DNA of 64,000 nt from an uncultured Erysipelotrichaceae bacterium (GTDB lineage: Bacteria; Bacillota_I; Bacilli_A; RFN20; CAG-826). The translations under genes and the position numbers were made by a program. Position 1 is the first letter of the stretch; each line of letters begins with the position of its first letter. Shown piece by piece: positions 19,173 to 52,799 of this stretch. The stretch covers positions 47,530 through 111,529 of the forward strand of contig CADCPN010000002.1 in NCBI GenBank assembly GCA_902803375.1, read 5' to 3'. The notes beneath the pieces were generated by a model that did not search any database, was not told where the DNA came from, and saw nothing but the letters and a program-made list of their open reading frames with translations.

Positions 19173-19676
19173 TTACTTTTTGGAGACGAGGCCGGCGAAG
19201 CAAGCGGCAACACCACCAACGAGGGCGAGAATTGCAGCGGCCATCCAGTTGCCAGTGAGGGTCCAGGAAGTGCTTTCGGTATCAAAGCTGTTAGCAGCAG
19301 CGAAATTCATCGGTGCGAAGAAGAGCATAACGCCAGCGGCGATAAGAAGAAGAGCAGAGACAAAGGCAACCGCAACGAGGCCGGTGACCTTTTTCTTCTT
19401 AGGCTTAAGGCTGAGCAAAGCAGCGCCGCAGCAGCCGAGAGCGCCAACGATACCAAGGATCCAAGCAGTTAGGGCAACAGCGGAGAGGGCGAAGGCCTTG
19501 GTGCTGATGTGCCAGGAGCCAATGCTTCCTTCAACAGGGGCAGCGAAAAGAACATACTTCGGAGCGAAGACGCTGTTTCCAGCAGCAACGCCGCCGCCGG
19601 TCACAACGAGGATGACAGAGACGACCGCAAGGACAAATCCAAGTCCAGCGAAAAGAAGAGAACCGTATTTTTTCAT
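19173..19676 (-). CDS. Small hydrophobic membrane protein (about 4 TM), hypothetical.
   Basis: 167 aa rich in Ala/Gly/Leu/Val with a KPKKKK loop. Confidence 0.4.
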   Translation of the reverse strand: MKKYGSLLFAGLGFVLAVVSVILVVTGGGVAAGNSVFAPKYVLFAAPVEGSIGSWHISTKAFALSAVALTAWILGIVGALGCCGAALLSLKPKKKKVTGLVAVAFVSALLLIAAGVMLFFAPMNFAAANSFDTESTSWTLTGNWMAAAILALVGGVAACFAGLVSKK

Positions 19677-19764
19677 GGGTTATATAAACCACCTTTCGAA
19701 AGAGATTATGTAGGGAAAAAGATTAAAAGAAAACTACCAAAAAGCCTTTAGGTGTATAAATAAA

Positions 19765-19795
19765 CCCCCAAGCGTAAACTTAGGGGTCATTTTGA
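19765..19795 (-). terminator. Terminator hairpin downstream of the PIN-like/Lys-rich gene.
   Basis: On the minus strand, cccctaagtttacgcttgggg is followed by gtttatttat. Confidence 0.35.
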
Positions 19796-22066
19796 CTACT
19801 TAATATCCTTAAGAGCCTGGTTGAGCTTATCTTCGGTGAAGAAGAGGCCTTTCTTCTGCTCTGGGGAAGCTTGCTTAAGCAACTCGAGCATATCGTTAAC
19901 GTCTTTCACCTTATTTTCGGCTTTGTAATTCGGGTTAGCGAGATTGGCACGGAGGACCTTATCGGTCTTGGCTAAGAGAGCGGAATCGACCGCTACGGCT
20001 TTCTTTTCCTTGGCGGGCTTTTTCTCCTCGGCCTTTTTCTTGGAGGCAGCCTTTTTGGCCGGGGCCTTTTTCTCCTCGGTCTTTGGGGCTTCTTCCTTAG
20101 CAGGCTTTTCCGCCTTAGCCGCTTTCGCGGTCTTGGTGGAAGTCTTCTTAGCGGAAGCCTTCTTGGTTGGCTTTTCCTCTTTGACTTTTACCGGCGCTTC
20201 TTCCTTCTTTGCCTTGGCCTTGGCTTTGGTTTTTGCCTTGGCTTTCTTCGGTTCAGGTTTGGCAGCGGCAACGTCTTTCTTTGCGGCAGACTTGGTAGCC
20301 TTCATAGCTTCGAAGCGAGCAGATCTTTCAATCTTGTCTTTCATCTCGGGTTCCGGGATCATCGCCACAAGAGTCGCACCTTGCGGAGTGGCAGTTCCAA
20401 CAACCTCGGTAATTGCCGGTTCAGAGGCTTTTTGCAAGGATTTTTGGTCTTTGGAAGACTTTCTGCGGGCATTTGCCTTCACGTTGGCAGCTTTCACGCT
20501 ATCGCGCTCACGCTGGACGAGGAGGGTCTGAGGAGTGGCCATGTTCGGAGCCTGTTCAGGCTTGGATTCCGGTTTGCCTTCGGGGTTGGATTCAGGCTTA
20601 GCGGCCTTCTTCTTTTTCTTCTTGGCGGGTTTGTCTTCTTCAACAGGAGCGGGAGAGAGTTCCGTTTTGGCTTCAGGGAGAGTTTCGACAGGCTTTTCGG
20701 CCGGTTTGGTCTCTTCGACTTTCTCTTCCACAGGCGCTTCTTCCTTCTTTGGGAGAGGTTTGGGCTCGCTCTTGGGTTTGGAAATAGTAACGACAGGGGT
20801 TTCAGAACTTATGGCTAGGTAAACGCGGTATCCGCCTTTACCCTTTTCGGCTTTGAAGCTATAGCCTTTCTTAGCAACGATCGCGACGTCTTCCTTCTCG
20901 AGGATGGAGGTTAGTTCCTCAAGGATGGATTTCTTGTCGGCGATAGTCGCATCGATCGGACCATGGACACCCGCGAAATACGGGACGGATGCATCACGGA
21001 ACATGACGCCATAATGGGCAGCGACCTGCTCTAATGCGTAGTCTAGGCCATGGCCGAAGCCATACCAAAGTTTTTTCGCTGGGGCGGCGGCCGGCGCCAA
21101 GAGGGTCGCAGGAGCGACTTCCTCTTTCTTCTCTTCGACCATCGAGGCAACAGGTTCTTCAACCTTTTTCGTCTCCACGGCCTTGGGAGCGGCCTCTTTC
21201 GGGGCCTCATCTTTCTGTTCAACCTTAGGCTGTTCTTTCTTCTGCACGGCCTTGGCGGGGGCAGCGACTAGTTTAGCGCGCTCCGCTTCAAGGGCAGGTA
21301 TGTCGTAATTTAGCTTCAAGCTAGCAAGGGCCTCGCCGGCATTGCGTAAAAGCGCAAGCTGGGCATCGATGTCCTTGATCTTTCTATTGACCAAATAATT
21401 GGAGTTGCCTAGGCTGGCGCGGAGACGGAAATCTCCGTTTTTGATCTCATCAAGAGTGGTGTCAGATTTCTTGATGTCTTTCTTCGCTCCGTTGTCATTG
21501 CGGGGAGCGTTCGCTTGCGAAGATAGCCTTTTATCTTCGTGGGAATTGTTCATTGGGCGACGATTTTCGCCTCTGTTGGGTATGAGATCACCATTGGTAA
21601 TGATCTTGAATACGGCAACGCGGTGGCCACGCTGAGAAGCTAATTCGTTTAGGTTTAGCAAATCAGTGGCTAACTTCTTGTCTTGAGTGATAACTAAGAT
21701 TTTGGAGTGCAGGCGGTCAGTCGAAACCCTTACATAAATCGCGTTATCTGCAAAATTCTCGTTTTTCTCTTTTAGAATTTTGATTGGTTTGTTCAGCCAA
21801 TGACGTCCTAGGATATGCAATGCGCGTTCAGCGGCAATTCGCTTATCCAAGTCCCCATCATTCTTAGAATGCTTGATCAATTCGTCTTCACATTGCTTGA
21901 GAATGTAAACGGGAACGCGGGGCTTGCAATACTTTTTGGCCCTTTCTAGAACATCCATCCACTCAGGGAAGTCCTCGTCCATCAATGAGCAAGTGTCCAC
22001 AAGAACATAGTTATAAGGTTGGATAACCTTAGCTAGGTCTGAGGCTTTTTTCTCATCTTTGTACAT
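19796..22066 (-). CDS. Mosaic protein with an N-terminal PIN-like nuclease domain, a central globular region, two copies of a ~30-aa repeat and a long Lys/Ala/Glu/Pro-rich histone-H1-like region.
   Basis: 756 aa. N-terminus YVLVDTCSLMDE...VITQDKKLATD has PIN-like acidic residues. Repeats are LRASLGNSNYLVNRKIKDIDAQLALLRNA and LRANLANPNYKAENKVKDVNDMLELLKQA. The tail contains KAKAKTKAKAKAKKEEAPVKVKEEKPTKKASAKK. Confidence 0.5.
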   Translation of the reverse strand: MYKDEKKASDLAKVIQPYNYVLVDTCSLMDEDFPEWMDVLERAKKYCKPRVPVYILKQCEDELIKHSKNDGDLDKRIAAERALHILGRHWLNKPIKILKEKNENFADNAIYVRVSTDRLHSKILVITQDKKLATDLLNLNELASQRGHRVAVFKIITNGDLIPNRGENRRPMNNSHEDKRLSSQANAPRNDNGAKKDIKKSDTTLDEIKNGDFRLRASLGNSNYLVNRKIKDIDAQLALLRNAGEALASLKLNYDIPALEAERAKLVAAPAKAVQKKEQPKVEQKDEAPKEAAPKAVETKKVEEPVASMVEEKKEEVAPATLLAPAAAPAKKLWYGFGHGLDYALEQVAAHYGVMFRDASVPYFAGVHGPIDATIADKKSILEELTSILEKEDVAIVAKKGYSFKAEKGKGGYRVYLAISSETPVVTISKPKSEPKPLPKKEEAPVEEKVEETKPAEKPVETLPEAKTELSPAPVEEDKPAKKKKKKAAKPESNPEGKPESKPEQAPNMATPQTLLVQRERDSVKAANVKANARRKSSKDQKSLQKASEPAITEVVGTATPQGATLVAMIPEPEMKDKIERSARFEAMKATKSAAKKDVAAAKPEPKKAKAKTKAKAKAKKEEAPVKVKEEKPTKKASAKKTSTKTAKAAKAEKPAKEEAPKTEEKKAPAKKAASKKKAEEKKPAKEKKAVAVDSALLAKTDKVLRANLANPNYKAENKVKDVNDMLELLKQASPEQKKGLFFTEDKLNQALKDIK

Positions 22067-22154
22067 TTTTTGGTTAGTTCCTTTTCTTAAGTGTTAACCT
22101 CCGTTGCGTATTATACACAAATATACGGGTGACCTTGCTAGGGTAAAGCAAAAC

Positions 22155-22238: not shown

Positions 22239-24017
22239 TTATTTCTCTTTTTTCTCAGAAGCCTCTTCCTGCTGAAGTTTAGACTCCTGCGGAATGAGGC
22301 CTTTGGTGAAGAGAGGCTTGCCATCTTTCATCTCCTGGCCGTGTTCGTAGTAGATCACTCCTTCATCTATGAGCCTAGCTTCTTCGCGATAGGCGGCTAG
22401 TTCCTCGTCATTGCAGAGGATCCAGTGTCCCGGCAAGACTTCCTGGAAAGTCGGCTTCTGTTTGGAATAGTCGTGGGCGATGGCCGGGTTATAGATGATT
22501 CTCTGGCGGCGCTTCTCCGAGAGCGGGTTAGGCTGAGGGATGGCGGAGAGAAGAGACTTGGTATACGGATGCAGCGGATGCTTGAAGAGTTCATCCGAGG
22601 TGGTGAGCTCAACCATATCGCCGAAGTACATAACGCCGATGCGCTGGCAGAAATACTTAACGGTGGAGAGGTCGTGGGCGATGAAGATCATCGTTAGGCC
22701 CATCTCATCTTTAAGCTCGTTAAGGAGGTTGATGATCTGGGCACGGATAGAGACGTCGAGAGCGGAGATCGGCTCATCGCAGATGAGGAGCTTCGGATTC
22801 ATGATAAGCGCACGGGCGATGCCAATACGCTGTCTCTGGCCGCCAGAGAACTCATGCGGATAACGGGAAGCATGCTCTGGAACAAGGCCAACCTTCTCAA
22901 GGATTTCCACAGTCTTCCTGTGGTTCTCGGCACGATTATGATGGCCTTGGATTCGCAAGCCTTCCTGAATGATGTCCTCAACGGTCATACGAGGGTCGAG
23001 GGAGTCCACGGGATCCTGGAAAATCATCTGGATTTCGTTTAGGAGGGCACGCGGAGCGTGCTTATTATCGTAATGGATCTGACGGATCTTATCCTTTTGA
23101 TGTTCGACGACAAGGGCGTTTCTTTCCTTAAGGGCCTTGATCTGCTTGGCGTAATCCTCATGGATCGGCTTAGCCTGATCAGGAGTGAGGCCAGCAACCT
23201 TCTCAGCTTCCTCTTTCCTTAGCGCGGCGACCTTCTCCTTGCAGTGAATTCGGGAGTATTTGATCTCCTTGCGGTTCCATCTATCGCCGGCGCCGATGCG
23301 GTAACCTTTGAAATAAACAGAGCCAGAGGTGATGTCGTAGAGGTGGATGATGGAGCGACCGGTAGTGGATTTGCCACATCCAGACTCGCCGACAATGCCG
23401 AAGGTCTCTCCTTCATAGACGTCGAAGGAGACATTATGGACGGCTTTGAGCTTCACCTGGTTCGGCCAAGTGCCGAAGTGGAAGAACATACGCATGTGAC
23501 GAACGGCGAGGAGCTTATGGTCATCCACAAGCTTATGCTTATAGGTCAATTGCACGAGTTTGATGTCGAGTTGAGTCTTCTCGAGCTCTTCCTTTAAGGC
23601 TTTGAGCTCATCGTCGATCGGAGCGAGTTCTTTCGCCTTCTCTTCCTTCGAAAGGGAGGATAGAGATGCGGATTTCGATGCCCGCTCCTTCTTCTTTTCA
23701 GAGATTTTAGCTTTGAGGTCAGCCGCCTTTTTGTGGTTGGAGGCTAGACGCTGGCGCTTCTTCTCCTCCGCTTCCTTTTTGCGGGCGCGGTATTCAAGTT
23801 CGGGGATTTCGACGGACCCAGCATGATGCTGGGTTCTTTCATCCTCGTTCTCATCGCGAAGAATGTTGCCGCCACCGGTTTCGATGGAGGTGGCTTCTTC
23901 GAAGGCAGGGGAGTCGGCAGGATTGCCTTTGTTTAGCTTAGCGGCTTCCTCAGCCTTTTTTCTAGCGGAGGCGCCCTTGAGGTCACCTAGCGGCTTATTC
24001 ATGTTTTTATTTGGCAT
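22239..24017 (-). CDS. oppF: Oligopeptide ABC transporter ATP-binding protein OppF with a ~175-aa coiled-coil N-terminal extension and a ~150-aa insertion between Walker A and the signature motif.
   Basis: Walker A GESGCGKST. Signature FSGGQRQRIGIARAL. Walker B LLICDEP. The C-terminal oligopeptide-ABC domain is present. The insertion is Lys/Glu-rich. Confidence 0.8.
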   Translation of the reverse strand: MPNKNMNKPLGDLKGASARKKAEEAAKLNKGNPADSPAFEEATSIETGGGNILRDENEDERTQHHAGSVEIPELEYRARKKEAEEKKRQRLASNHKKAADLKAKISEKKKERASKSASLSSLSKEEKAKELAPIDDELKALKEELEKTQLDIKLVQLTYKHKLVDDHKLLAVRHMRMFFHFGTWPNQVKLKAVHNVSFDVYEGETFGIVGESGCGKSTTGRSIIHLYDITSGSVYFKGYRIGAGDRWNRKEIKYSRIHCKEKVAALRKEEAEKVAGLTPDQAKPIHEDYAKQIKALKERNALVVEHQKDKIRQIHYDNKHAPRALLNEIQMIFQDPVDSLDPRMTVEDIIQEGLRIQGHHNRAENHRKTVEILEKVGLVPEHASRYPHEFSGGQRQRIGIARALIMNPKLLICDEPISALDVSIRAQIINLLNELKDEMGLTMIFIAHDLSTVKYFCQRIGVMYFGDMVELTTSDELFKHPLHPYTKSLLSAIPQPNPLSEKRRQRIIYNPAIAHDYSKQKPTFQEVLPGHWILCNDEELAAYREEARLIDEGVIYYEHGQEMKDGKPLFTKGLIPQESKLQQEEASEKKEK

Positions 24018-25752
24018 AGCTAGATTCCTCCTCTAAGGCTTTCTTGATACGCTCGCTGACGATCTTCGGGGGCTCGACGTGCTCGGCTCCTGGGTATTCA
24101 AGCCAGGAAGCGACGAAGTGGGTCGGGGAGACCTGGAAGAACGGCGGCTGGTATTTGTAATCGATGCCGAGGGCGTATCTGTTTCTATCGGCAAAGGCAT
24201 CGCCGACCGGCGGATAGATCATATCCGGAGGGGTGCCGGGGATGGCCTCGAGCTTTTCCTTGGAATCAATGTCAGGGATGGACGAGAGCAAAGCCCAGGT
24301 ATAGGGGTGACGCGGATCGAAGAAGATCTCCTTATCCGTGCCGTATTCGCAGATCTTGCCAGCATACATGACGGCGACGCGGTCGGCCATGTTGGCGACG
24401 ACGCCGAGGTCGTGGGTGATGAAGATGACGGACATTTTACGCTCAGCCTTGAGCTTGTTGATAAGTTCAAGAATCTGGGCCTGGATGGTGACGTCAAGGG
24501 CGGTAGTCGGCTCATCACAGATGAGGATGTCCGGATTCGCGGTTAGGGCAATTGCGATGACGATACGTTGTCTCATGCCGCCGGAGAACTCGAACGGGTA
24601 CTGTTTGAAGCGGCGTTCCGCCTGCGGGATGCCAACCTCCTTCATAACCTTGATGGCGCGGCGTTTGGCCTCAGCCTTGGTGATGCGGATGGCATTCTGA
24701 TATTCGCGCTTGGCGGCGATGACTTCTTCGTTAGCAGTATCGAAGTCCTTGGTAAGGGCGGCGCGCTTCTCTAATAGCGGGGCAAGCACTTCCTTTTCCT
24801 TGGCAACGATGGCCTCCCTCCTCTTTCTTAGGAAATAGGTGAGGTAACGGCGGGTTTCATATACAAGTTTGGTCTTTTTGATTTCGGAATCGACCTTCTT
24901 GACCTTCTCCCAGTTAACGCCTGGGCGGATGGCTTCGCGCTTGGCGGTCGCGGCAGCAACCTTCTCATCGCGAACTTTCTGCAAGCCCTTTTTCCAGGCA
25001 GCGGTCTCGACCTTGGCTTCCTTTTTGCGAGCATCAAGGGCGGCCTTTAGGCCTGGAGCGACGCGCTTATACTCGGCTTTCGCCGCAGCGCTTCTCTCCT
25101 GGCATTCCTTCTTCTTGGCATTAAGGAGAGCCTTCGCCTCCGCTTTACGCGCGGCGATTTTCTCCTTATCGCCAGTGGCGATGATTTCATCGGTCTCCTT
25201 TTTTAGCTGGGAGGCGTAGTCGTTATATTGGTTTTCTGCGAGTCTAATCTCGGAATCGCGAGCAGCCGCAGCGTTCTTATAGGCAATAAGCTCTTTGGAG
25301 ATGAGCTCCTCGTAATGGTTCTTCTCCATGTTGGAGTTGATCAACATGGTCTCCGTGATCTGCTTGCCGATGCGAACGATTGGGTTGAGGGAGGAAAGAG
25401 GGTCCTGGAAGATCATGCCGATCTTTTTGCCGCGGATGCGGATGAACTCCTCTTCGGAGATCTGCAGGAGATCCTCTCCCTGATACATGATGGAGCCGCC
25501 TTCGATGAGGGCATTCTTGGAAAGGATGCCCATGATGGCTTTGGAGGTGACGGATTTGCCAGAGCCAGACTCTCCGACGATGCAGAGGGTCTCGCCGCGA
25601 TATAGGTCGAAGCTGACGCCGCGGACGGCCTGAACTTTGCCATTGTCGGTCCTGAAGGAGATCTTAAGGTTCTTGACCTCAAGGGCCTTTTCCTTTTTGG
25701 AAAGGTCATTTCCCTCTTCGATGATGTTTTTGTATTGTTCTTTGAAGTCCAT
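24007..25752 (-). CDS. oppD: Oligopeptide ABC transporter ATP-binding protein OppD with a ~230-aa coiled-coil insertion.
   Basis: Walker A GESGSGKSV. Signature FSGGMRQRIVIAIAL. Walker B ILICDEP. The insertion between the Q-loop and the signature is a heptad-like E/K/A-rich segment. Confidence 0.8.
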   Translation of the reverse strand: MDFKEQYKNIIEEGNDLSKKEKALEVKNLKISFRTDNGKVQAVRGVSFDLYRGETLCIVGESGSGKSVTSKAIMGILSKNALIEGGSIMYQGEDLLQISEEEFIRIRGKKIGMIFQDPLSSLNPIVRIGKQITETMLINSNMEKNHYEELISKELIAYKNAAAARDSEIRLAENQYNDYASQLKKETDEIIATGDKEKIAARKAEAKALLNAKKKECQERSAAAKAEYKRVAPGLKAALDARKKEAKVETAAWKKGLQKVRDEKVAAATAKREAIRPGVNWEKVKKVDSEIKKTKLVYETRRYLTYFLRKRREAIVAKEKEVLAPLLEKRAALTKDFDTANEEVIAAKREYQNAIRITKAEAKRRAIKVMKEVGIPQAERRFKQYPFEFSGGMRQRIVIAIALTANPDILICDEPTTALDVTIQAQILELINKLKAERKMSVIFITHDLGVVANMADRVAVMYAGKICEYGTDKEIFFDPRHPYTWALLSSIPDIDSKEKLEAIPGTPPDMIYPPVGDAFADRNRYALGIDYKYQPPFFQVSPTHFVASWLEYPGAEHVEPPKIVSERIKKALEEESSYAK

Positions 25753-33729: not shown

Positions 33730-35334
33730 TTATTCGGCAGCTTTGGTGGTGTCGATGAGCTTGGCGTCTCCGATGAAGTTGCGAACAGAGGTGGCGGCAG
33801 AGATGGCGGAATCCTTAGACGGATAGGTTTCGCCCATGATCATGACGGCTCCGTTGTCGGAGAAGACCTTGAACTGATAGCGGTTCTGCTTATCTCTGGA
33901 GATGGTCATAGAGCCGGCAAGGACTTTGGCCTTGACCTTCTCGATGGCGCTGAGAACAGCGTTCTTGGAGGAATAGGTGGAGGTGACGAACAAGACAGCG
34001 CCGTTGGAGGCGATGAGCTGACCGATCCACTTCTTGGTCTCTTCATCGATAGAGACTTCGACTTTGCCGTTCTTGGTCGGGGTGACCGGGGCGAAGTCGA
34101 TGGTCCATTCGCGGACTTCTTCTTCCGGGATCTCGTCGAGGTCGACGATCTTCTTGGCATCATAGAAACGCTCAACGGAATTCAAAGCGTTCTGGGCGTT
34201 GACGGCGGTCGGATAGATTTCGCCGGCGACGACTAGGCGGGAATCGTTGGCCGTGAAGATACGGAACTGGCTGTAGCCGTTCTTATCGGTGATGATCTTG
34301 GTGGTTCCGCCCGGGACGTTCTTCTTTAGGGTGGCGATTCCAGCCTTGGCGCCCTCGCGGGTCTTATAGCCATTGGAGACGATGAGGATTTCACCGTTGT
34401 TGGCTTTTAGGCGATATTTGAAGAATCCAGCTTCCGGGAAGACTTCGTATTTGCCGACGACTTTGGACTCTTTGGCTTTGGCTTTCGGGGCAGCGGCGAC
34501 AGCTGGCTCTTCCTCGACAGGGGCAGACTCTTCAGCGGTTTCCGGGGCAGACTCTTCGGCGACGGGCTCTTCGGACTTTTCGTCGGCAACGGATTCTTCA
34601 GCCTTGCCTTCGGCCGGCTTCTCCTCTGGCGCTTCTTCCTTCGTTTCGGGCTCGATAGCCTTAGCAGCGGATTTCTTGGCTTTGGCTTTCTTGGCGGGTA
34701 GAGCCTTCATTTCTTCCTCAACAGGGGCAGCCTCTTCGGCGACAGGTTCTTCCTGCTTCGGTTCTTCCTTGACCGGCTCTTCGGGCTTTTCTTCCTTAGC
34801 AGGTTCTATAGCGACAACGGCTTCTTCCTGCTTCGGTTCTTCCTTGGTTTCTATAGCGACAGGTTCTTCGACTTTCTCTCCGGTGGCCGGTTCCTCGGCG
34901 ACGATAGTAGCTTCCTTCTTACCGGAAAGGCCAAAGACGATAGAAAGAATCATGGCGATTAGGCCAAGTAGACCTGCAACGCCAGCAAGGATGGCGTGAA
35001 CCTCTGATAGGCTGGCCTTAATGTCTCTGACCGGGGTCAAAGCCATAAGTCCACCGACGATGCCGATCAAGGCAAGGAATGCCGGAAGGACAAAGGCCGG
35101 CTTCTTCTTGGCGAGGACCAAAACGAGGGCCACGACGAAGAGAAGGGCTCCGCAGACGCAGCCAACGCTGAGCGTGAGGGCAAATTTTCCCTCACCCTGG
35201 AAAGCGAGTCTGGCGATGTTCTCGCCAGCAAAGGTGACGTTGAAGCCAACTAAGGCGAGTGCCACGACTGCAAGTGCGGCAGCCACGGCCGCGATTGCAG
35301 TCGTGCAGATGAATTTTCCTTTCGTGTTTTTCAT
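33730..35334 (-). CDS. Membrane-anchored protein with an N-terminal TM bundle, an acidic Pro/Glu/Lys/Ala-rich linker and four tandem DUF1508 (YegP/UPF0339) repeats.
   Basis: Four repeats: FKYRLKANNGEILIVSNGYKTREGAKAGIATLK; FRIFTANDSRLVVAGEIYPTAVNAQNALNSVERF; WIGQLIASNGAVLFVTSTYSSKNAVLSAIEKVK; YQFKVFSDNGAVMIMGETYPSKDSAISAATSVRNF. The start is set at MKNTKGK (35334), upstream of 3-4 TM helices. Confidence 0.55.
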   Translation of the reverse strand: MKNTKGKFICTTAIAAVAAALAVVALALVGFNVTFAGENIARLAFQGEGKFALTLSVGCVCGALLFVVALVLVLAKKKPAFVLPAFLALIGIVGGLMALTPVRDIKASLSEVHAILAGVAGLLGLIAMILSIVFGLSGKKEATIVAEEPATGEKVEEPVAIETKEEPKQEEAVVAIEPAKEEKPEEPVKEEPKQEEPVAEEAAPVEEEMKALPAKKAKAKKSAAKAIEPETKEEAPEEKPAEGKAEESVADEKSEEPVAEESAPETAEESAPVEEEPAVAAAPKAKAKESKVVGKYEVFPEAGFFKYRLKANNGEILIVSNGYKTREGAKAGIATLKKNVPGGTTKIITDKNGYSQFRIFTANDSRLVVAGEIYPTAVNAQNALNSVERFYDAKKIVDLDEIPEEEVREWTIDFAPVTPTKNGKVEVSIDEETKKWIGQLIASNGAVLFVTSTYSSKNAVLSAIEKVKAKVLAGSMTISRDKQNRYQFKVFSDNGAVMIMGETYPSKDSAISAATSVRNFIGDAKLIDTTKAAE

Positions 35335-35846
35335 AAAATTTCTCCCTTTTATGTTTTTTGGAAAACAACAGTCTATATTGTCCTCATTTTTTGGGTTTCT
35401 TACAAGAAGCAGGAATTTTTTACTCTTTCTCACATATAAAAGAGGTGATAGGTGCATCGATTTTTGTGTGAAAGCATTTTTTCCTGCCGGGAAAGTGAGT
35501 GGTTTTTGTATAGATACGCGTCTGTTTGAGCAACGACCACGTTCGCCATGAATGGGAAGAAAAAAGCACAGCGAATCTCTCCGCCATGCTTGATTTCGGC
35601 TTTAGCCAGAAGGGGTGATATGATTCCTCTTAGTCAAGAGGTGGGCGTCCATGGTCAGCCATCAGGATTCCCAAGCGGTTAGGTTGGGCATTCAACACCG
35701 GCGTCTCCAGTCAGGACTCCCTAGATATCAAAATGTAGGGGAACAATGTTCCTTCTGGCCCACTAGAATTGCTTCTAGCAAGACCATTATATATCCCGAA
35801 CTTCTCCAATAGGGAAGGGGGAAGGCTAAGATGAAACAAATGCTTA

Positions 35847-38800
35847 TTATTTGGACTTCTTAGAGTTGGATTTTGTAGCAGGAATCTTAGCTTTTTGCTC
35901 TTTTTCCCTAGCAATTTCCTCTTTCTCTTTTTCTGCCAAAGAGGCCTTCATTTTAGCGATGCGCTCTTCTGTTTTGCGCTTTTTCTCCTCTTCCGCTAAT
36001 TTTTTGCTTTCCTCTACTTTCTTGGCCTCTTTCTTTGCCTTCGCCTTCTTGGCGATGGAGACAATGAGCCAGACAAGGAGAACGAGAACGGCGCCACTAG
36101 CGGCTGCCAGGGTTAGCCATGCCCAAGTCGGAAGAATTTCCTTCTTGGCCATTTCGTAGCTGAAGCGTTCGCCGGTGGAATAGGTGAAGAGATAGCGGCC
36201 AGAATCATACTTGGAGTCGATCTTGGCGAGCTTAGCGCCGCTTCCTTTATAAAGAGTGGCGCCTTCTTCCATCTCGAGCTTCACGTTAACGTCTTTGACG
36301 CTAATCTCCTTGCCGTCGCAATAGAAGCGGAGGATATAGCCATCATAGGTTTCTTCCAAGATGACGGAGGTGCCTTTCTTGAAGAGGCCGGTGACGATGA
36401 CTTTGGAATCGGAAGTGAAGAGGCTGGTGGAAACCTCTTCGTAGCGGGCATAAACCTTCATGGAACTATCCACATCGCTAGGGAGATCCCAAGATGCGAA
36501 GTAGGAGGCCTTGTCGCCAGAGTAAATCATGTAGCCATCTTTTTCAGAGGCATAGAGGAAAGCCGGGGCTTCCTTGATTTTTTCGCCTGCGAATAAGCGG
36601 ACATAGGAGTTAAGGGAATAGGCATCCTTATTGAGGGAGCCGTCTTCCTTATAAAGATCGCCATTCTCCTCGCGGAATTCCATGAAGGAGACAAGATATG
36701 CGATTCGAGAGTTCTTCTTCGCGACCTCGCTCATCTTGTCCTTATGGGCGTCGAAGAGGGATTTGAAGGAGGATTCGTCGCCATAGGCGTCGTTATCCTT
36801 AACCTCTTCGAAGCAGCGGAGTTCTGGATAGGCTTTGCTATCTTCTCCTGCCTGATAGGCTTCGGCGTCGAAGTGGAGACTTAGATTCGGGGAAAGAGAA
36901 CCGTTGGAAGCAAGGGCTTCAGGAGCGAGGGCCTTGGCTGCGTCATCGTAGGAGGAATCATATTCCGCTTTATCGATGCCGCCTAAGGAACCGACGTAAT
37001 AGTTCCACTTGATGGAGGTGGAGAAAGAGTTGGTAGCGGAGACGAAGGTGGTAGCCTCGCCTAGGAGCGCGCCTTTATGCGCGGAGGCATCCTCATTGAG
37101 AATCTCAACGTTGCTGATGCAGGAGGTCATGTCGCCAGAGAGGGTGCCGGCGATGCCGCCGACATAATCTTCGCCGGAAACTTCGGCGGAGGAATAGGAA
37201 GAGGCGACGTTTAGCGCGACGCCGGCGATGCCGCCGACGTGCTTTTTGCCTTCGACTAGGCTAGAGGCAAGGCATTCTTTGATGCTGCCTTTGGCCATGG
37301 AGCCGGCGATGCCGCCGACGTTCTCGCCGACGCTGCCTTTAACGTGACCGTTGTTGAGGGAATGGGTAAGGGAAAGATCGGCAGAGCTATTGAAGCCGAT
37401 GATGCCGCCGACGTTGCTCTTGCCGAGGACTTCGCCATAGTTTGCGGAATAATCCACAACGGCTTTGGCACCGTCGTATTGCTCATCAAGCTCTTCTTCG
37501 TTTGGGAAATATTCCTTCATGAAGCCTTCATAGCCCATGGCGTTGAAATACTTCTCTAGATCGGCGTTATTCTGCTCAACTTTGCCATAGTAGCCGGAGA
37601 TGCCGCCGACATAGCGGTCTGCGGTGACGGAGGCATCGTTGGTCGCGAAATAGATCTCGCCGTTGCTGACGCCGGCGATGCCGCCGACGTAGATCGCGGA
37701 GTTAGATGAAGACACACTGGCCTTATTTTCAACATCGGAGATCTTGCCAGCGCTATATCCGGCGATACCGCCGAGGTTGACGAGGGTGATGTTCTGGTTG
37801 CTGGATTGGCCGAGCAGGGTACCTTCATTTTTGCTGGAGGTGATCTCGCCTAGGTTTAAGCCAGCGATGCCGCCGACGTCGTTGGCGCCGGAGGTAACCG
37901 CAGTAGAGGTAATCTTGGCAAGCTTGCCATAGCGGAACTGCTTGGTGCTGTCAGAAGTCTCATTGTCCTTATATTCGCTGCGGCCGTTCTCTGCGGCAAA
38001 GCCGACGTAACGTCTGCCTTTTAGGAGGCCGGAGATGGAACAGGAATAGACTTCGCCATAGTTATGGCCAATGACGCCGACATAGTCGTTATCAAGGCAA
38101 TCGAAGTGAGCGTTCTCGATGTTCAGCCTTTCAACGCAGCCATCTTTGGCAAGGGTATTGAAGATGTTATAGGAGGAGGAATTCTTGTCGAAATAGACGT
38201 TGCGGAAAGAATGGAATCCGGCATCAAGGGTGCCCTGGAAATAGGAAATCGGGGTAAGGGAGGTGCTGGAGAAATCGATGTCATTAGTAAGGCGGACGAT
38301 CTTTTTCTGGCTATAGGAGGCGGAGGCGTTGCACTTATCCGCGAATTCATTCCAGCCCTTCGCCGTTGAGATGAGAACCTCTTCGGTGTCTTTCTCCGGG
38401 TCGACTTTCGAGAACTTGTAGTGGCGGCCTAGGCCATAGACGTGTTCCTCGGAAAAGAGGAGAGTGTAGTCACCCGCATCCTCGATTTCGATGTGCTTGG
38501 TGCCGTTTTTGTATTTGTTCTCACCATCGGTGATGTAGAAAGACATGCCGCCCCGCGGGACGACGAGGTCATAACGATATTGCTTGTAGTCCTCTTCGTA
38601 ATACTCCTGAGATTCGGTGATTTCCTTCATCTCGTATTTGTCGTCGAGAAGGATGTCGCCGTTGTCGCCATAAAGATATCCGTTGAGGTCAGAGGCGATG
38701 TAGAAGCCATTATAGGAGGCGGTCTCTTCCTTATAGGTCACCGCGACGTTGTTATCTACGTCAGTGAAGGAGAACGTGTACCAGCCGCGGTCGGCGATGG

Positions 38801-39833
38801 TAAGGGTCATGGAGGCCTTTCCCTTTTTGTCCTCGTCTTCGCCTAGCCTCTTATAGCCGCCTTCTTCCTTCTCGTAGACGGAATAGTGGAGGACGAGGTC
38901 CTCTTCGCCGACATAAAAGGGTTCCGAGTTGTAGGTGGCAGGAGAGAGGACGGATTCATCGCGGGTTAGGGAATAACCCTTTTCGGTATTGGAGATGTCC
39001 GTAGGCTCAGCTTTGGTAAGAAGGTTTTCGTGAAAAGAGAGGAAATAGGCGGGGGCGTCTTCGATGTAGATGTGGTACTGGTAATCAGAACCGGTGCCGT
39101 AATTGCCATTCTCATCGAAGAGGAATTTCTGTAGGCCCACTTCCTTGCCAGGGGTGAAGAGGATGCGGTAGCTGCCGTCGGCGGAGATCACATGGGACTC
39201 CTTCTCATAGGCGACGACATCGTCCTTCTTCAAATCGATGGAAGAGATGTAATAGCAGTCGTAGGCGCTTTGATAAGGATTATAGGTGAGAGGCGTATCC
39301 GTTCCGTTCACGGAGATGGAGTACTCCTGCTTCTCGTAAAGCTTATAGGTGACGTGGCTAGAGGTGGCTTTGAAGCCATCCTTCTCCTCGTTATAGGTGG
39401 TCTTGGGATTGAATCTGACGGTATAGGTCAAAGCGGTCTTCTCATCGCTGAGGAAAGACTCGCCTTTGCTGTCGCCATAGCGGCTGCCATCAGAGCCCCC
39501 GACGTAGAAGGAGGTGCCGGTGGGGAGATAGACCTCATCCAGCTCATACTCGCCATCATCAAGAAGGGTCATCTTGTGGGAGCTGCGCTTGGCATAGTTC
39601 TCGGTGCTGATGCAGACGAAATAATCGTAGACGGGCGCTTCTTCTTCCTCAGCCGATGTATCCGGGCTTTCAGTATCGCTCGGGGTGTCCTCACCCTCAG
39701 CCGAGGTTCCTTCGGATGGAGTATCATCAGCTTTCACGGTTAATGGGCTAGAGGGCATCGCCGAGATGGCGAGGCCGCTTAGCAGCATTAAGGCGGAAAG
39801 AGTCATCAATTTTGAGGCTTTAGTCATTTTCAA
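35847..39833 (-). CDS. Giant (1328 aa) secreted/surface protein with a signal peptide, an acidic linker, Gly-rich repeats carrying a recurring VGGIAG core (GLUG-motif-like), a single C-terminal TM anchor and a ~65-aa Lys/Glu-rich cytoplasmic tail.
   Basis: Signal MKMTKASKLMTLSALMLLSGLAISAMP. Repeat cores VGGIAGLNLGEI, LGGIAGYSAGKI, VGGIAGVSNGEI, VGGISGYYGKV, VGGIIGFNSS, VGGIAGSMAKGS, VGGIAGVALN and VGGIAGTLSGD. Anchor WAWLTLAAASGAVLVLLVWLIVSIA followed by KKAKAKKEAKK.... Confidence 0.6.
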   Translation of the reverse strand: MKMTKASKLMTLSALMLLSGLAISAMPSSPLTVKADDTPSEGTSAEGEDTPSDTESPDTSAEEEEAPVYDYFVCISTENYAKRSSHKMTLLDDGEYELDEVYLPTGTSFYVGGSDGSRYGDSKGESFLSDEKTALTYTVRFNPKTTYNEEKDGFKATSSHVTYKLYEKQEYSISVNGTDTPLTYNPYQSAYDCYYISSIDLKKDDVVAYEKESHVISADGSYRILFTPGKEVGLQKFLFDENGNYGTGSDYQYHIYIEDAPAYFLSFHENLLTKAEPTDISNTEKGYSLTRDESVLSPATYNSEPFYVGEEDLVLHYSVYEKEEGGYKRLGEDEDKKGKASMTLTIADRGWYTFSFTDVDNNVAVTYKEETASYNGFYIASDLNGYLYGDNGDILLDDKYEMKEITESQEYYEEDYKQYRYDLVVPRGGMSFYITDGENKYKNGTKHIEIEDAGDYTLLFSEEHVYGLGRHYKFSKVDPEKDTEEVLISTAKGWNEFADKCNASASYSQKKIVRLTNDIDFSSTSLTPISYFQGTLDAGFHSFRNVYFDKNSSSYNIFNTLAKDGCVERLNIENAHFDCLDNDYVGVIGHNYGEVYSCSISGLLKGRRYVGFAAENGRSEYKDNETSDSTKQFRYGKLAKITSTAVTSGANDVGGIAGLNLGEITSSKNEGTLLGQSSNQNITLVNLGGIAGYSAGKISDVENKASVSSSNSAIYVGGIAGVSNGEIYFATNDASVTADRYVGGISGYYGKVEQNNADLEKYFNAMGYEGFMKEYFPNEEELDEQYDGAKAVVDYSANYGEVLGKSNVGGIIGFNSSADLSLTHSLNNGHVKGSVGENVGGIAGSMAKGSIKECLASSLVEGKKHVGGIAGVALNVASSYSSAEVSGEDYVGGIAGTLSGDMTSCISNVEILNEDASAHKGALLGEATTFVSATNSFSTSIKWNYYVGSLGGIDKAEYDSSYDDAAKALAPEALASNGSLSPNLSLHFDAEAYQAGEDSKAYPELRCFEEVKDNDAYGDESSFKSLFDAHKDKMSEVAKKNSRIAYLVSFMEFREENGDLYKEDGSLNKDAYSLNSYVRLFAGEKIKEAPAFLYASEKDGYMIYSGDKASYFASWDLPSDVDSSMKVYARYEEVSTSLFTSDSKVIVTGLFKKGTSVILEETYDGYILRFYCDGKEISVKDVNVKLEMEEGATLYKGSGAKLAKIDSKYDSGRYLFTYSTGERFSYEMAKKEILPTWAWLTLAAASGAVLVLLVWLIVSIAKKAKAKKEAKKVEESKKLAEEEKKRKTEERIAKMKASLAEKEKEEIAREKEQKAKIPATKSNSKKSK

Positions 39834-52214: not shown

Positions 52215-52799
52215 GGACGATTAATCATAGTGCTTAAATAAAAAAAGTCACCTGATTGTCTATGTTTTCCTTTGCCCTCCCCTACATGAAGCCTATACTA
52301 CGTCCAGGGAAATGGTGTTCTTCCCGGCTACTAGCAAAACCGCCTTTCTGGGCTGATGGCGTCTGTCTCTGTTTTTCGCCTAGGCAGACGGCGGGCCGGA
52401 AAGGATTTTTCATAGGAGCTTCTTCCTTTGCTTAGGGATCATTCTTCTCGTTGGAGGGCTATTGGGGTTCCTGCTAAAAAGATTCGCCTGGCGTCGCTCC
52501 TAGGCTAACTTGCCTTAGGCATATTCCTCAGCTGCTTCGGATTCAGTAACCAGGAATTGCTCGGCATACCCTCTCAAAGAAGAAAGATCGCTTTAGGAGC
52601 GATTCTTTTGAAGGCGGGCTTCTCGACCTTGGCAACCGCCTGGGCAACGAGGCGATCATCGCCTCTGGCAATATCGTCTTATCCGTGGCCGTCTTAGCCA
52701 TCCTGCTCACCGCAGCGATATCCGCGGTGATTGTGGATCTAACTATACGAAGCTAACAAGGAAAGAAATTGCTCCCATTTCAGAGGAAAAAACGGCAAA

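Follow-up and report, generated by a model that had tools for sequence, protein, structure and literature searches.

The 64,000-nucleotide stretch of contig CADCPN010000002.1 considered here (the window), from an uncultured Erysipelotrichaceae bacterium, encodes on its minus strand, at positions 19796..22066, a protein of 756 residues that begins with ATG and ends at a stop codon in the list of open reading frames (ORFs). This gene is real, conserved and uncharacterized, and belongs to uncultured gut and rumen Bacilli of the order RFN20. The N-terminal domain of its product is well supported, by sequence conservation and structural modeling, as a PIN domain with a complete acidic set, and it is most likely an active Mg2+/Mn2+-dependent endonuclease, since the full metal site of four acidic residues is kept. 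By analogy, there is about an even chance that the protein is a cytoplasmic, housekeeping endoribonuclease that cuts RNA while tethered to nucleic acid. What is new is the architecture, along with two undescribed domains and a natural exchange between disorder and winged helices. As PIN fusions are commonplace and lineage-restricted hypothetical proteins abundant, the system does not count as a new kind. The ORF and all of the peptides quoted in an initial annotation of this DNA are present exactly, at the coordinates and on the strand given above.

A search of about 5.8 billion proteins, with family clusters taken at E<=3e-33, recovered 117 clusters of 480-756 aa and 30-65% identity, many of which span 99-100% of the 756-aa query. 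The sequences of this 117-member family are ~35% identical overall, and the order of modules is constant in the family alignment while linker lengths differ. An identical protein (P0001) is present in public collections on 8 contigs. In a genome scan restricted to one genome per species, relatives were found in about 106 species genomes; the 80 loci that were kept come from 80 different assemblies, one locus each, and profile searches of the genomic loci detect a single gene copy per locus. The initial annotation had allowed that the gene might be an artifact, two ORFs fused by a frameshift, but the same architecture recurs in the 117 clusters and about 106 species genomes. The one PIN-only product inspected, P0126 (195 aa), is itself a frameshifted full-length gene, in which the repeat and middle domain go on in another frame. 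Its source is locus L087 4001-5361. There, the A-rich linker that follows the PIN domain carries a frameshift, in the AAAAAGGAAAAAG region, that breaks the family gene in two; this reflects either an assembly error or a pseudogene.

The family loci lie in metagenome-assembled genomes (MAGs) labeled Ca. Enteromonas, Ca. Alloenteromonas, Bacilli, Mollicutes and Erysipelotrichaceae, and their host sources are the human, chicken, ruminant and horse gut. Ca. Enteromonas corresponds to family CAG-826 of the GTDB order RFN20 (PMC8035907), a family predicted to be peptidoglycan-deficient and related to Mycoplasmatales (PMC10868615). No publication describing the protein family was found in a literature search. 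Several MAG records marked "cleanbin" (L004, L005, L007, L010, L043, L056, L062, L063, L068, L078 and L080) carry this Bacilli-specific gene under titles that include Escherichia coli, Alistipes, Parasutterella, Roseburia, Lachnospiraceae and Bacteroidales, and these bin labels look wrong.

The PIN domain occupies residues 1-170 (21557..22066, minus strand), as delimited by the AlphaFold2 (AF2) model, Foldseek and family conservation. A model of the whole protein, built from a 27-sequence family alignment, has a mean predicted local distance difference test score (pLDDT) of 67 with a sharply bimodal distribution, and is confident at residues 1-169, 202-270, 331-421 and 692-756, the last with three to four helices. 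In the first of these segments the pLDDT is mostly 80-96 and strands alternate with helices, in keeping with the three-layer alpha/beta/alpha fold, built on a central parallel sheet, of the VapC-like PIN group. The top ~25 Foldseek matches of this model in the PDB are PIN domains, led by EST1A/SMG6 (2dok, 2hwx), Utp24 in 90S pre-ribosomes (5oql_P, 9n7a_SL) and AF0591 (1o4w), and followed by Utp24/Fcf1 (5yz4), Utp23 and Nmd4, with 2hww also among the best structural matches. The E values of the PIN matches range from 5e-4 to 1e-2 and their template modeling scores, TM(target), from 0.44 to 0.64. The viral structure library BFVD returned only generic PIN/FEN-like proteins.

The residues D24, E62, D107 and D129 are invariant in 117 of 117 members, and D135 is present in 116. 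The same full invariance is seen for T25, S27, H66, R118, T127, Q128, N140 and G147. Candidate active-site motifs place D24 in DTCSLM, E62 in ELxKH, D107 in FADNAI and D129 in ITQDKKL, with D135 as a further candidate residue; in the predicted secondary structure, D24 follows strand 20-23, E62 lies in the helix past strand 53-56, D107 stands at the start of helix 106-117 and D129 follows strand 123-126. The residue positions of the PIN active site have been defined, and activity requires no fewer than four acidic residues (PMC5499597). By their predicted topology, the four acidic residues of this family sit at these positions. The domain also has a conserved N-terminal helix, MYxDExKxSxLAK. 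Together, the Foldseek matches and the complete, invariant acidic set bear out the PIN-like fold that the initial annotation had proposed, and the loss of the acidic tetrad, which it had named as a possible objection, is seen in none of the 117 members.

At the level of sequence profiles, direct scans of the 756-aa query against Pfam, NCBIfam, PADLOC and PHROGs gave no usable match, and the query does not match the PIN_4 model (PF13638; gathering threshold 21.9 bits) at E<=1. Among 27 members scanned, seven match PIN_4 at E<=0.01 (best E 3e-7), three match PIN_12 and one matches PIN_9, and a precomputed PF13638 match exists for three family clusters. The family PIN profile aligns with a Pfam-passing PIN_4 domain from Fusobacterium over 156 columns (hhalign probability 99.1%, E 6e-19), with all acidic residues paired. 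The family would accordingly be placed, from its profiles, as a divergent branch at the edge of the PIN_4 model. When PDB sequences were searched with the protein and with the full-family and PIN profiles, the returns were confined to low-complexity matches and to Fcf1/Utp24 and mL67, which fell short of significance; the PIN profile reached Fcf1/Utp24 at a non-significant E of 0.18-2.3, in alignments that pair FADNAI with YADDCI and ITQDKKL with ATNDKNL.

The PIN_4 group, which includes SMG6/EST1A, SMG5, Swt1 and the N-terminal part of PhoH2/YlaK, has the same fold, and the four acidic residues of the present family are canonical for it. Unlike that group, this family is without a PhoH ATPase, a 14-3-3/TPR region or an antitoxin, and its PIN domain comes joined with a pair of domains seen nowhere else and with some 300 charged, disordered residues. 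Fcf1/Utp24 (PF04900, COG1412) are also structural matches (TM(target) up to 0.64), and in both cases a lone catalytic PIN domain would need help to find RNA. Pfam Fcf1 is matched by none of the 27 members, and Utp24 acts in the eukaryotic small-subunit processome, which is without a bacterial counterpart. Members of the family are publicly named "hypothetical protein" or, in eight protein clusters, "rRNA-processing protein FCF1" by the Joint Genome Institute; the latter label is a fold-level annotation, a guess from the fold only, and does not count as evidence for a role in rRNA processing.

The closest PIN homologues outside RFN20 are about 30-33% identical and are found by the family PIN hidden Markov model (HMM) at E 5e-31 and 4e-27. 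One, on plasmid pFN9B of Lysinibacillus capsici (WP_263082632.1, 860 aa, annotated "CFI-box-CTERM"), contains a Pkinase domain and a treble-clef zinc finger, and its gene is followed by genes for vWA and PP2C phosphatase proteins (L081 3791-8135). The other, a 769-aa protein of Fusobacterium vincentii SB055, combines PIN_4 (27.3 bits), Pkinase and a zinc finger, with a vWA gene after it and a helix-turn-helix (HTH) protein plus a degenerate PIN-like protein before it (L082 3021-6998). The PLSDB "plasmid" record for this Fusobacterium is 2.1 Mb long and probably a chromosome. The kinase parts of both proteins weakly match PADLOC defense kinases, and judging from gene content, both clusters look like an undescribed conflict system. 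By sequence, the PIN module has its nearest relatives in these proteins with PIN, Ser/Thr kinase and zinc finger, which share all of its motifs, including the N-terminal helix; they differ in their kinase, zinc finger, vWA and PP2C components and are without the repeat module, middle domain and cationic tail. The family PIN module thus appears, on sequence grounds, to belong to a wider, uncharacterized PIN_4 sub-branch.

Beyond the PIN domain, a helical module occurs twice. Copy 1 (residues 204-270, 21257..21457, minus strand; pLDDT 77-93) follows disordered linker 1 (residues 171-203, 21458..21556, minus strand; pLDDT ~40), which ranges from 0 to 54 aa across the family, and copy 2 (residues 695-756, 19799..19984, minus strand; pLDDT 77-92) forms the C-terminus. 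Each contains three helices in the AF2 model, at residues 204-219, 226-242 and 256-268 in copy 1 and at 695-710, 716-731 and 745-755 in copy 2. The repeated stretches LRASLGNSNYLVNRKIKDIDAQLALLRNAG (residues ~213-242) and LRANLANPNYKAENKVKDVNDMLELLKQAS (~705-734) are identical at 14 of 30 positions (BLASTP E=7e-8), and their local alignment score of 72 compares with 26.4+/-5.1 (maximum 53) for 2000 shuffled sequences, z=8.9. Over 49 columns, the family profiles built for each region align with one another (hhalign probability 99.5%, E=6e-23), and reciprocal HMMs each find the other copy in the window protein at independent E values (i-E) of 4e-11 and 4e-10. The two-copy repeat described initially is therefore real, but its length of ~30 aa does not hold, as the models indicate that the true unit is a helical module of ~55-65 residues. 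Nor is the repeat carried by the Lys/Ala-rich region, as had been proposed, given that copy 1 stands between the PIN and middle domains and copy 2 past the tail at the extreme C-terminus.

The consensus of the module is D.RL.ANL.NPNYP...K..D...QL..L..L, in which the Tyr is invariant. Two modules are present in about 74 of 81 genomic gene copies; copy 1 is missing in a few members (P0116, P0117 and P0169), and copy 2 is nearly universal. In Pfam the module matches no family, with scattered coiled-coil noise as the only return. A likeness to uL29 was not accepted, having a PDB E of 0.02 but a per-domain i-E of 2.7. A degenerate-DNA search of viral contigs for ANLxNPNYP gave two matches, both of them out-of-frame and due to chance.

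The second globular region predicted in the initial annotation is likewise upheld. This middle domain (residues 331-421, 20804..21076, minus strand), which follows a disordered Ala/Lys/Glu/Pro-rich linker 2 (residues 271-330, 21077..21256, minus strand; pLDDT 36-44; A25 K17 E16 V11 P11 %), was modeled separately from 45 sequences with a pLDDT of 92.8 and a predicted template modeling score (pTM) of 0.82. Its topology is beta-alpha-(beta)-alpha-beta-beta-beta. The domain displays a conserved loop, FRDpS.PY....HGP.D.T, in which H368 and G369 are invariant; G338, R357, Y363, D372 and T374 are at least 87% conserved. Searches of the PDB gave no significant sequence match and no Foldseek fold match better than E 0.075. 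A partial match to a roadblock/longin-like meander (E at least 0.075, TM about 0.4, 58 columns) is too weak to name the fold, and a retroviral-integrase/RNase H-like (DDE) identity, suggested by a motif-level likeness of PY....HGP.D to PY..Q.HG..E at E 0.08-0.5, was rejected, no RNase H-like fold being matched.

An exhaustive HMMER run of the middle-domain profile over 1.84 billion representative proteins matched only 94. Among the 68 matches not previously seen, 64 have the PIN domain and 65 the C-terminal helical module; those that do not are fragments or one of two spurious repeat proteins. At 50% identity, about 92 representatives keep the same module order. The spurious proteins, P0153 (4599 aa) and P0194 (986 aa), had been candidates for multi-copy middle-domain proteins and were rejected as beta-helix-type repeat proteins with a chance FRDSAIH motif. 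These and the fragments aside, every match to the middle domain has this architecture, and the combination is thus as unusual as had been claimed. In 1.3 Mb of related genomic DNA, the middle domain, the repeat module and this type of PIN domain occur only inside the family gene.

Much of the remaining chain is disordered. A pLDDT below 50 is assigned to 304 residues (170-201, 271-329 and nearly all of 422-689), and disordered, charged low-complexity sequence makes up about 40% of the protein. The tail, all on the minus strand, comprises a Pro/Glu/Lys-rich polyampholyte spacer (residues 422-560, 20387..20803; pLDDT <50), a short linear motif, TATPQGATLVAMIPEPEMKDKIERSARFEA, that is a conserved island in the family alignment (residues ~561-600, 20267..20386), and a Lys/Ala-rich polycationic segment recognized by its composition (residues 601-694, 19985..20266; pLDDT 41-47). 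A helix is weakly predicted at residues 573-594 (pLDDT 63-67). Residues 426-560 contain K18 E14 P13 A11 % and have a net charge of +6, and residues 611-700 contain K35 A25 E13 % with a net charge of +19 and an isoelectric point (pI) of 10.1; the pI of the whole protein is 9.5. Over the 117 members, linker 3 is 59-275 aa long and unalignable, with a median net charge of +20. The final 90 residues before copy 2 carry a net charge of at least +10 in 75% of members, and the pI is 9.2-9.9 in all 117. Tail charge is conserved, and tail sequence is not. The island has the consensus AVPxGxxLVxGxP...(K/R)..IER, is present in 43 of 117 members by regular expression and may be a binding motif.

The disordered cationic tail of the initial annotation is thus confirmed, but its description as "H1-like" applies only loosely. 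The C-terminal domain of histone H1 and the chlamydial proteins Hc1/Hc2 (PF07382) share with this tail a Lys/Ala(/Pro)-rich, disordered, basic segment in which composition rather than sequence is conserved. Unlike them, the tail contains ~13% Glu, has a lower charge density (about +0.2), is a polyampholyte in its first half and is joined to an enzyme, and the query has no H1 globular domain. The query matches neither Pfam HC2 nor the linker-histone family; HC2 is touched by one of 27 members at E=0.0064, a score below threshold that reflects composition only. Tandem repetition in the DNA of the tail is almost nil, and tandem DNA repeats were rejected as its origin, as only CTTGGC x6 was found, at 20207-20242. 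Lys/Ala/Glu/Pro-rich inserts occur in four of the 45 long ORFs of the window, namely the PIN gene and three others, and because of these similar segments part of the tail composition is taken to be a lineage habit.

In four members (P0169, P0156, P0168 and P0183), which form an ortholog sub-branch, folded domains replace part of the disordered tail. P0169 (locus L085 6001-8346), in which copy 1 of the helical module is missing, contains a tandem array of four winged helices; against a Pfam cut-off of 30.6 bits, FtsK_gamma reaches 51.8 bits in this protein and 34.6 bits in P0156. The synteny at the P0169 locus is the usual one of the family, with a MutY-like gene upstream and DUF3899 and then opp genes downstream, and the protein is therefore considered an ortholog. 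That a nucleic-acid-binding fold takes the place of disorder here lends support to the idea that the tail tethers nucleic acid. Because charge is conserved and winged helices take its place in syntenic orthologs, the tail appears to be functional rather than a product of drift. The family thereby offers a clean natural case of charge-conserved disorder that is interchangeable with folded winged helices, in which a tethering role of the tail is directly testable.

The gene is best read, from its distribution and surroundings, as a chromosomally fixed, single-copy housekeeping gene, because it occurs in about 106 species genomes as one copy, with native base composition, its own signals and ordinary metabolic and translation neighbors. 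In the window these neighbors are Opp-type ATP-binding cassette (ABC) ATPases, a small membrane protein, a YbaK-type tRNA-editing protein, a GAF protein and Hsp20. Counted over 79 loci, a divergent XRE-type HTH membrane protein lies upstream in 30, YbaK is present in 26, the small membrane protein in 25 and Hsp20 in 23-38; about 13 have a MutY-like gene adjoining upstream in the same orientation, which this window lacks. No conserved operon or co-directional partner was found in these loci, the commonest neighbors being present in at most 38. The GC content of the gene (~0.51) is the same as that of the remainder of the window.

The initial annotation had also raised a role in defense, which the searches do not bear out. 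The protein has no PADLOC match at E<=1 and no PHROG match better than E 0.36. No relatives of the family were found on 2.9 million IMG/VR viral contigs or in 50,697 phage genomes, and 72,556 plasmids gave only distant PIN-only matches of about 30% identity (tblastn). No antitoxin, defense or mobile-element neighbors were found at the family loci, and the gene is present as one copy per genome. A known defense system was likewise rejected as an identity, as no PADLOC-DB model matches and the neighbors are housekeeping genes. The same fate met a VapBC-type module (a ~130-aa stand-alone toxin plus antitoxin), given that this protein has 756 aa, is multidomain, has its own signals and lacks a conserved co-directional partner in the 79 loci, as well as a PhoH2 identity, since Pfam and NCBIfam detect no PhoH or P-loop domain.

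In the mechanism proposed for a tethered endoribonuclease, the PIN domain would act as a metal-dependent endonuclease, with RNA as its most likely substrate by analogy with SMG6, Swt1, Utp24, PhoH2 and VapC. The Lys/Ala-rich polycation would hold on to nucleic acid without sequence specificity and so increase the amount of substrate close to the PIN domain, with the Pro/Glu/Lys spacer extending the reach of this tail. More speculatively, the helical module, the middle domain with its His-Gly loop and the AVPxGxxLV...IER motif might dock on the ribosome, an RNA structure or a partner, or might serve self-regulation. A functional analogy for such a tail is found in the C-terminal domain of Rrp6 in the nuclear exosome, where a Lys-rich disordered tail feeds RNA to the nuclease (PMC5314766). 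The likeness is that of a basic disordered extension that binds RNA nonspecifically and stimulates a nuclease; the proteins are not homologous, Rrp6 being a DEDD exonuclease in a eukaryotic complex. Rae1/YacP of Bacillus subtilis, a ribosome-dependent NYN/PIN-like endoribonuclease of ~170 aa, acts in housekeeping mRNA decay and is not a toxin. It provides a plausible functional model, although it belongs to another PIN subgroup, NYN, and lacks accessory domains; none of the searches gave a match to Rae1/YacP in sequence or fold.

Several observations weigh against a tethered endoribonuclease. The query reaches no Pfam PIN threshold, the profile-to-PDB sequence matches are non-significant (Fcf1 E 0.18), and the Foldseek values are modest (E about 5e-4, TM 0.44-0.64); the four acidic residues are expected to cluster in space from their topology only, the RNA substrate is assigned purely by analogy, and the nearest PIN relatives outside the lineage stand in conflict-system-like clusters rather than in housekeeping contexts. 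Moreover, FtsK-gamma domains classically bind dsDNA, and bacterial H1-like tails usually bind DNA. It is conceivable, though unlikely, that the protein is nucleoid-associated or a DNA-directed nuclease, in which the tail or winged helices would bind chromosomal DNA and the PIN domain would act on DNA or RNA:DNA structures, as in repair, R-loop/flap processing or nucleoid remodeling. The charge-conserved Lys/Ala-rich polycation would suit such a role, as would the FtsK_gamma domains, dsDNA-recognition winged helices, of the syntenic orthologs P0169 and P0156, although winged helices can bind RNA or protein too and the tail, with its Glu content, is less cationic than true H1/Hc tails. The MutY-like gene upstream on the same strand in ~13 loci and at the P0169 locus points the same way, yet only a minority of loci show it, and this window does not. 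Finally, the weaker Foldseek matches include a PIN-containing archaeal Holliday-junction helicase and FEN/5'-nuclease folds, whereas the best structural matches are RNA enzymes, and the characterized VapC-like, PIN_4 and Fcf1 enzymes are all ribonucleases (PMC5499597).

The conflict-system-like clusters bear on a different explanation, that of a toxin or defense effector whose PIN domain is kept inactive in cis by the accessory domains, or by a neighboring regulator, and is freed upon phage attack or stress. Here the closest outside homologues, in which PIN, kinase and zinc finger are accompanied by vWA and PP2C and the kinases weakly match PADLOC, would be joined as evidence by the divergent XRE-type HTH membrane protein upstream in 30 of 79 loci and by the many bacterial PIN_4 proteins listed as toxins (PMC5499597). 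We regard this as quite improbable: the protein itself matches neither PADLOC nor PHROGs, it is accompanied neither by a small antitoxin gene in the same orientation nor by a kinase, vWA or PP2C partner, its neighbors are housekeeping genes that vary between genomes, viral contigs and phage genomes hold no copies, and plasmids only the distant PIN-only matches. One copy per genome and synteny across many species fit vertical inheritance and not the patchy occurrence that defense genes typically show. Less probable still is a structural or scaffold protein (a ribosome- or membrane-proximal adaptor or a condensate former) that uses its PIN domain as a binding module only. The extent of disordered, charged low-complexity sequence (about 40%) is consistent with this, and the inactive PIN binders Utp23, SMG5 and trypanosomal mL67 are among the weak matches, but inactive PIN domains characteristically lose acidic residues (PMC5499597), whereas here four are invariant, and D135 nearly so (116/117), despite ~35% identity, which argues for selection on catalysis. 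The repeat module is also faintly like the helical hairpin of uL29 (E 0.02), a likeness that is non-significant per domain (i-E 2.7).

A bolder form of the endoribonuclease proposal, which we hold to be unlikely, makes the protein a lineage-defining RNA-decay or processing enzyme of the wall-less, reduced-genome RFN20, with its PIN domain anchored to the ribosome or nucleoid by the H1-like tail and its private domains, the alpha/beta domain with the His-Gly loop and the duplicated NPNYP helical module, as new folds for docking on nucleic acid or the ribosome. If so, it might substitute for a canonical decay-initiating RNase in RFN20. Members of RFN20 are common in human, chicken and ruminant guts, and none is cultured, leaving conserved hypothetical genes as the only handle on these reduced cells. 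The family adds to the bacterial PIN proteins a predicted nuclease that is apparently housekeeping and not a toxin, in an architecture not seen elsewhere. Two of its domains have no Pfam family defined, and the middle one is also without a match among solved structures.

The 756-aa gene looks monocistronic, because it appears to have its own promoter-like and terminator-like signals; each of these, on the minus strand, is a consensus match only. The intergenic region upstream, 172 bp long, contains promoter-like elements at 22110..22147, among them an extended -10, TGTGTATAAT, at 22119-22110 (consensus scan and direct sequence reading). The direct reading also places AAAGGA 12 nt 5' of the ATG. 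A terminator-like hairpin with an 11-bp stem and a T-rich tail lies at 19763..19788, 8 nt past the stop codon. A strong negative AT skew at 20-22 kb results from the Lys/Ala/Glu codons on the minus strand.

Directly downstream, at 19173-19676 (minus strand), is a 167-aa multi-pass membrane protein with no Pfam match, and about 25 of 79 loci have a similar small membrane protein after the PIN gene. Just upstream, the two Opp-type ABC ATPases (22239-24017 and 24007-25752, minus strand) are unusually long, at 592 and 581 aa; the N-terminus of one is extended by ~170 Lys/Glu-rich residues, and in the other a ~200-aa Ala/Lys/Glu-rich helical insert splits ABC_tran into two matched stretches. Further along the minus strand, a 575-aa ORF (33730-35457) combines three DUF1508 repeats (E 9e-29) with a stretch rich in Lys, Ala, Glu and Pro (KAEP content 85% over 60 aa), and a 1328-aa ORF (35847-39833), another large uncharacterized protein, has a Lys/Ala/Glu-rich C-terminus and no Pfam match at E<=0.001. 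A DUF1508 protein stands directly upstream of the PIN gene in locus L087, and in 14 further loci (e.g. L006) the -1 position is taken by a 485-aa membrane protein of matching sequence style. An Rfam scan found no element near the gene; its sole match in the window is a fluoride riboswitch (crcB motif, RF01734) at 52299-52372 on the plus strand, which scores 40.6 bits vs a gathering score of 34.

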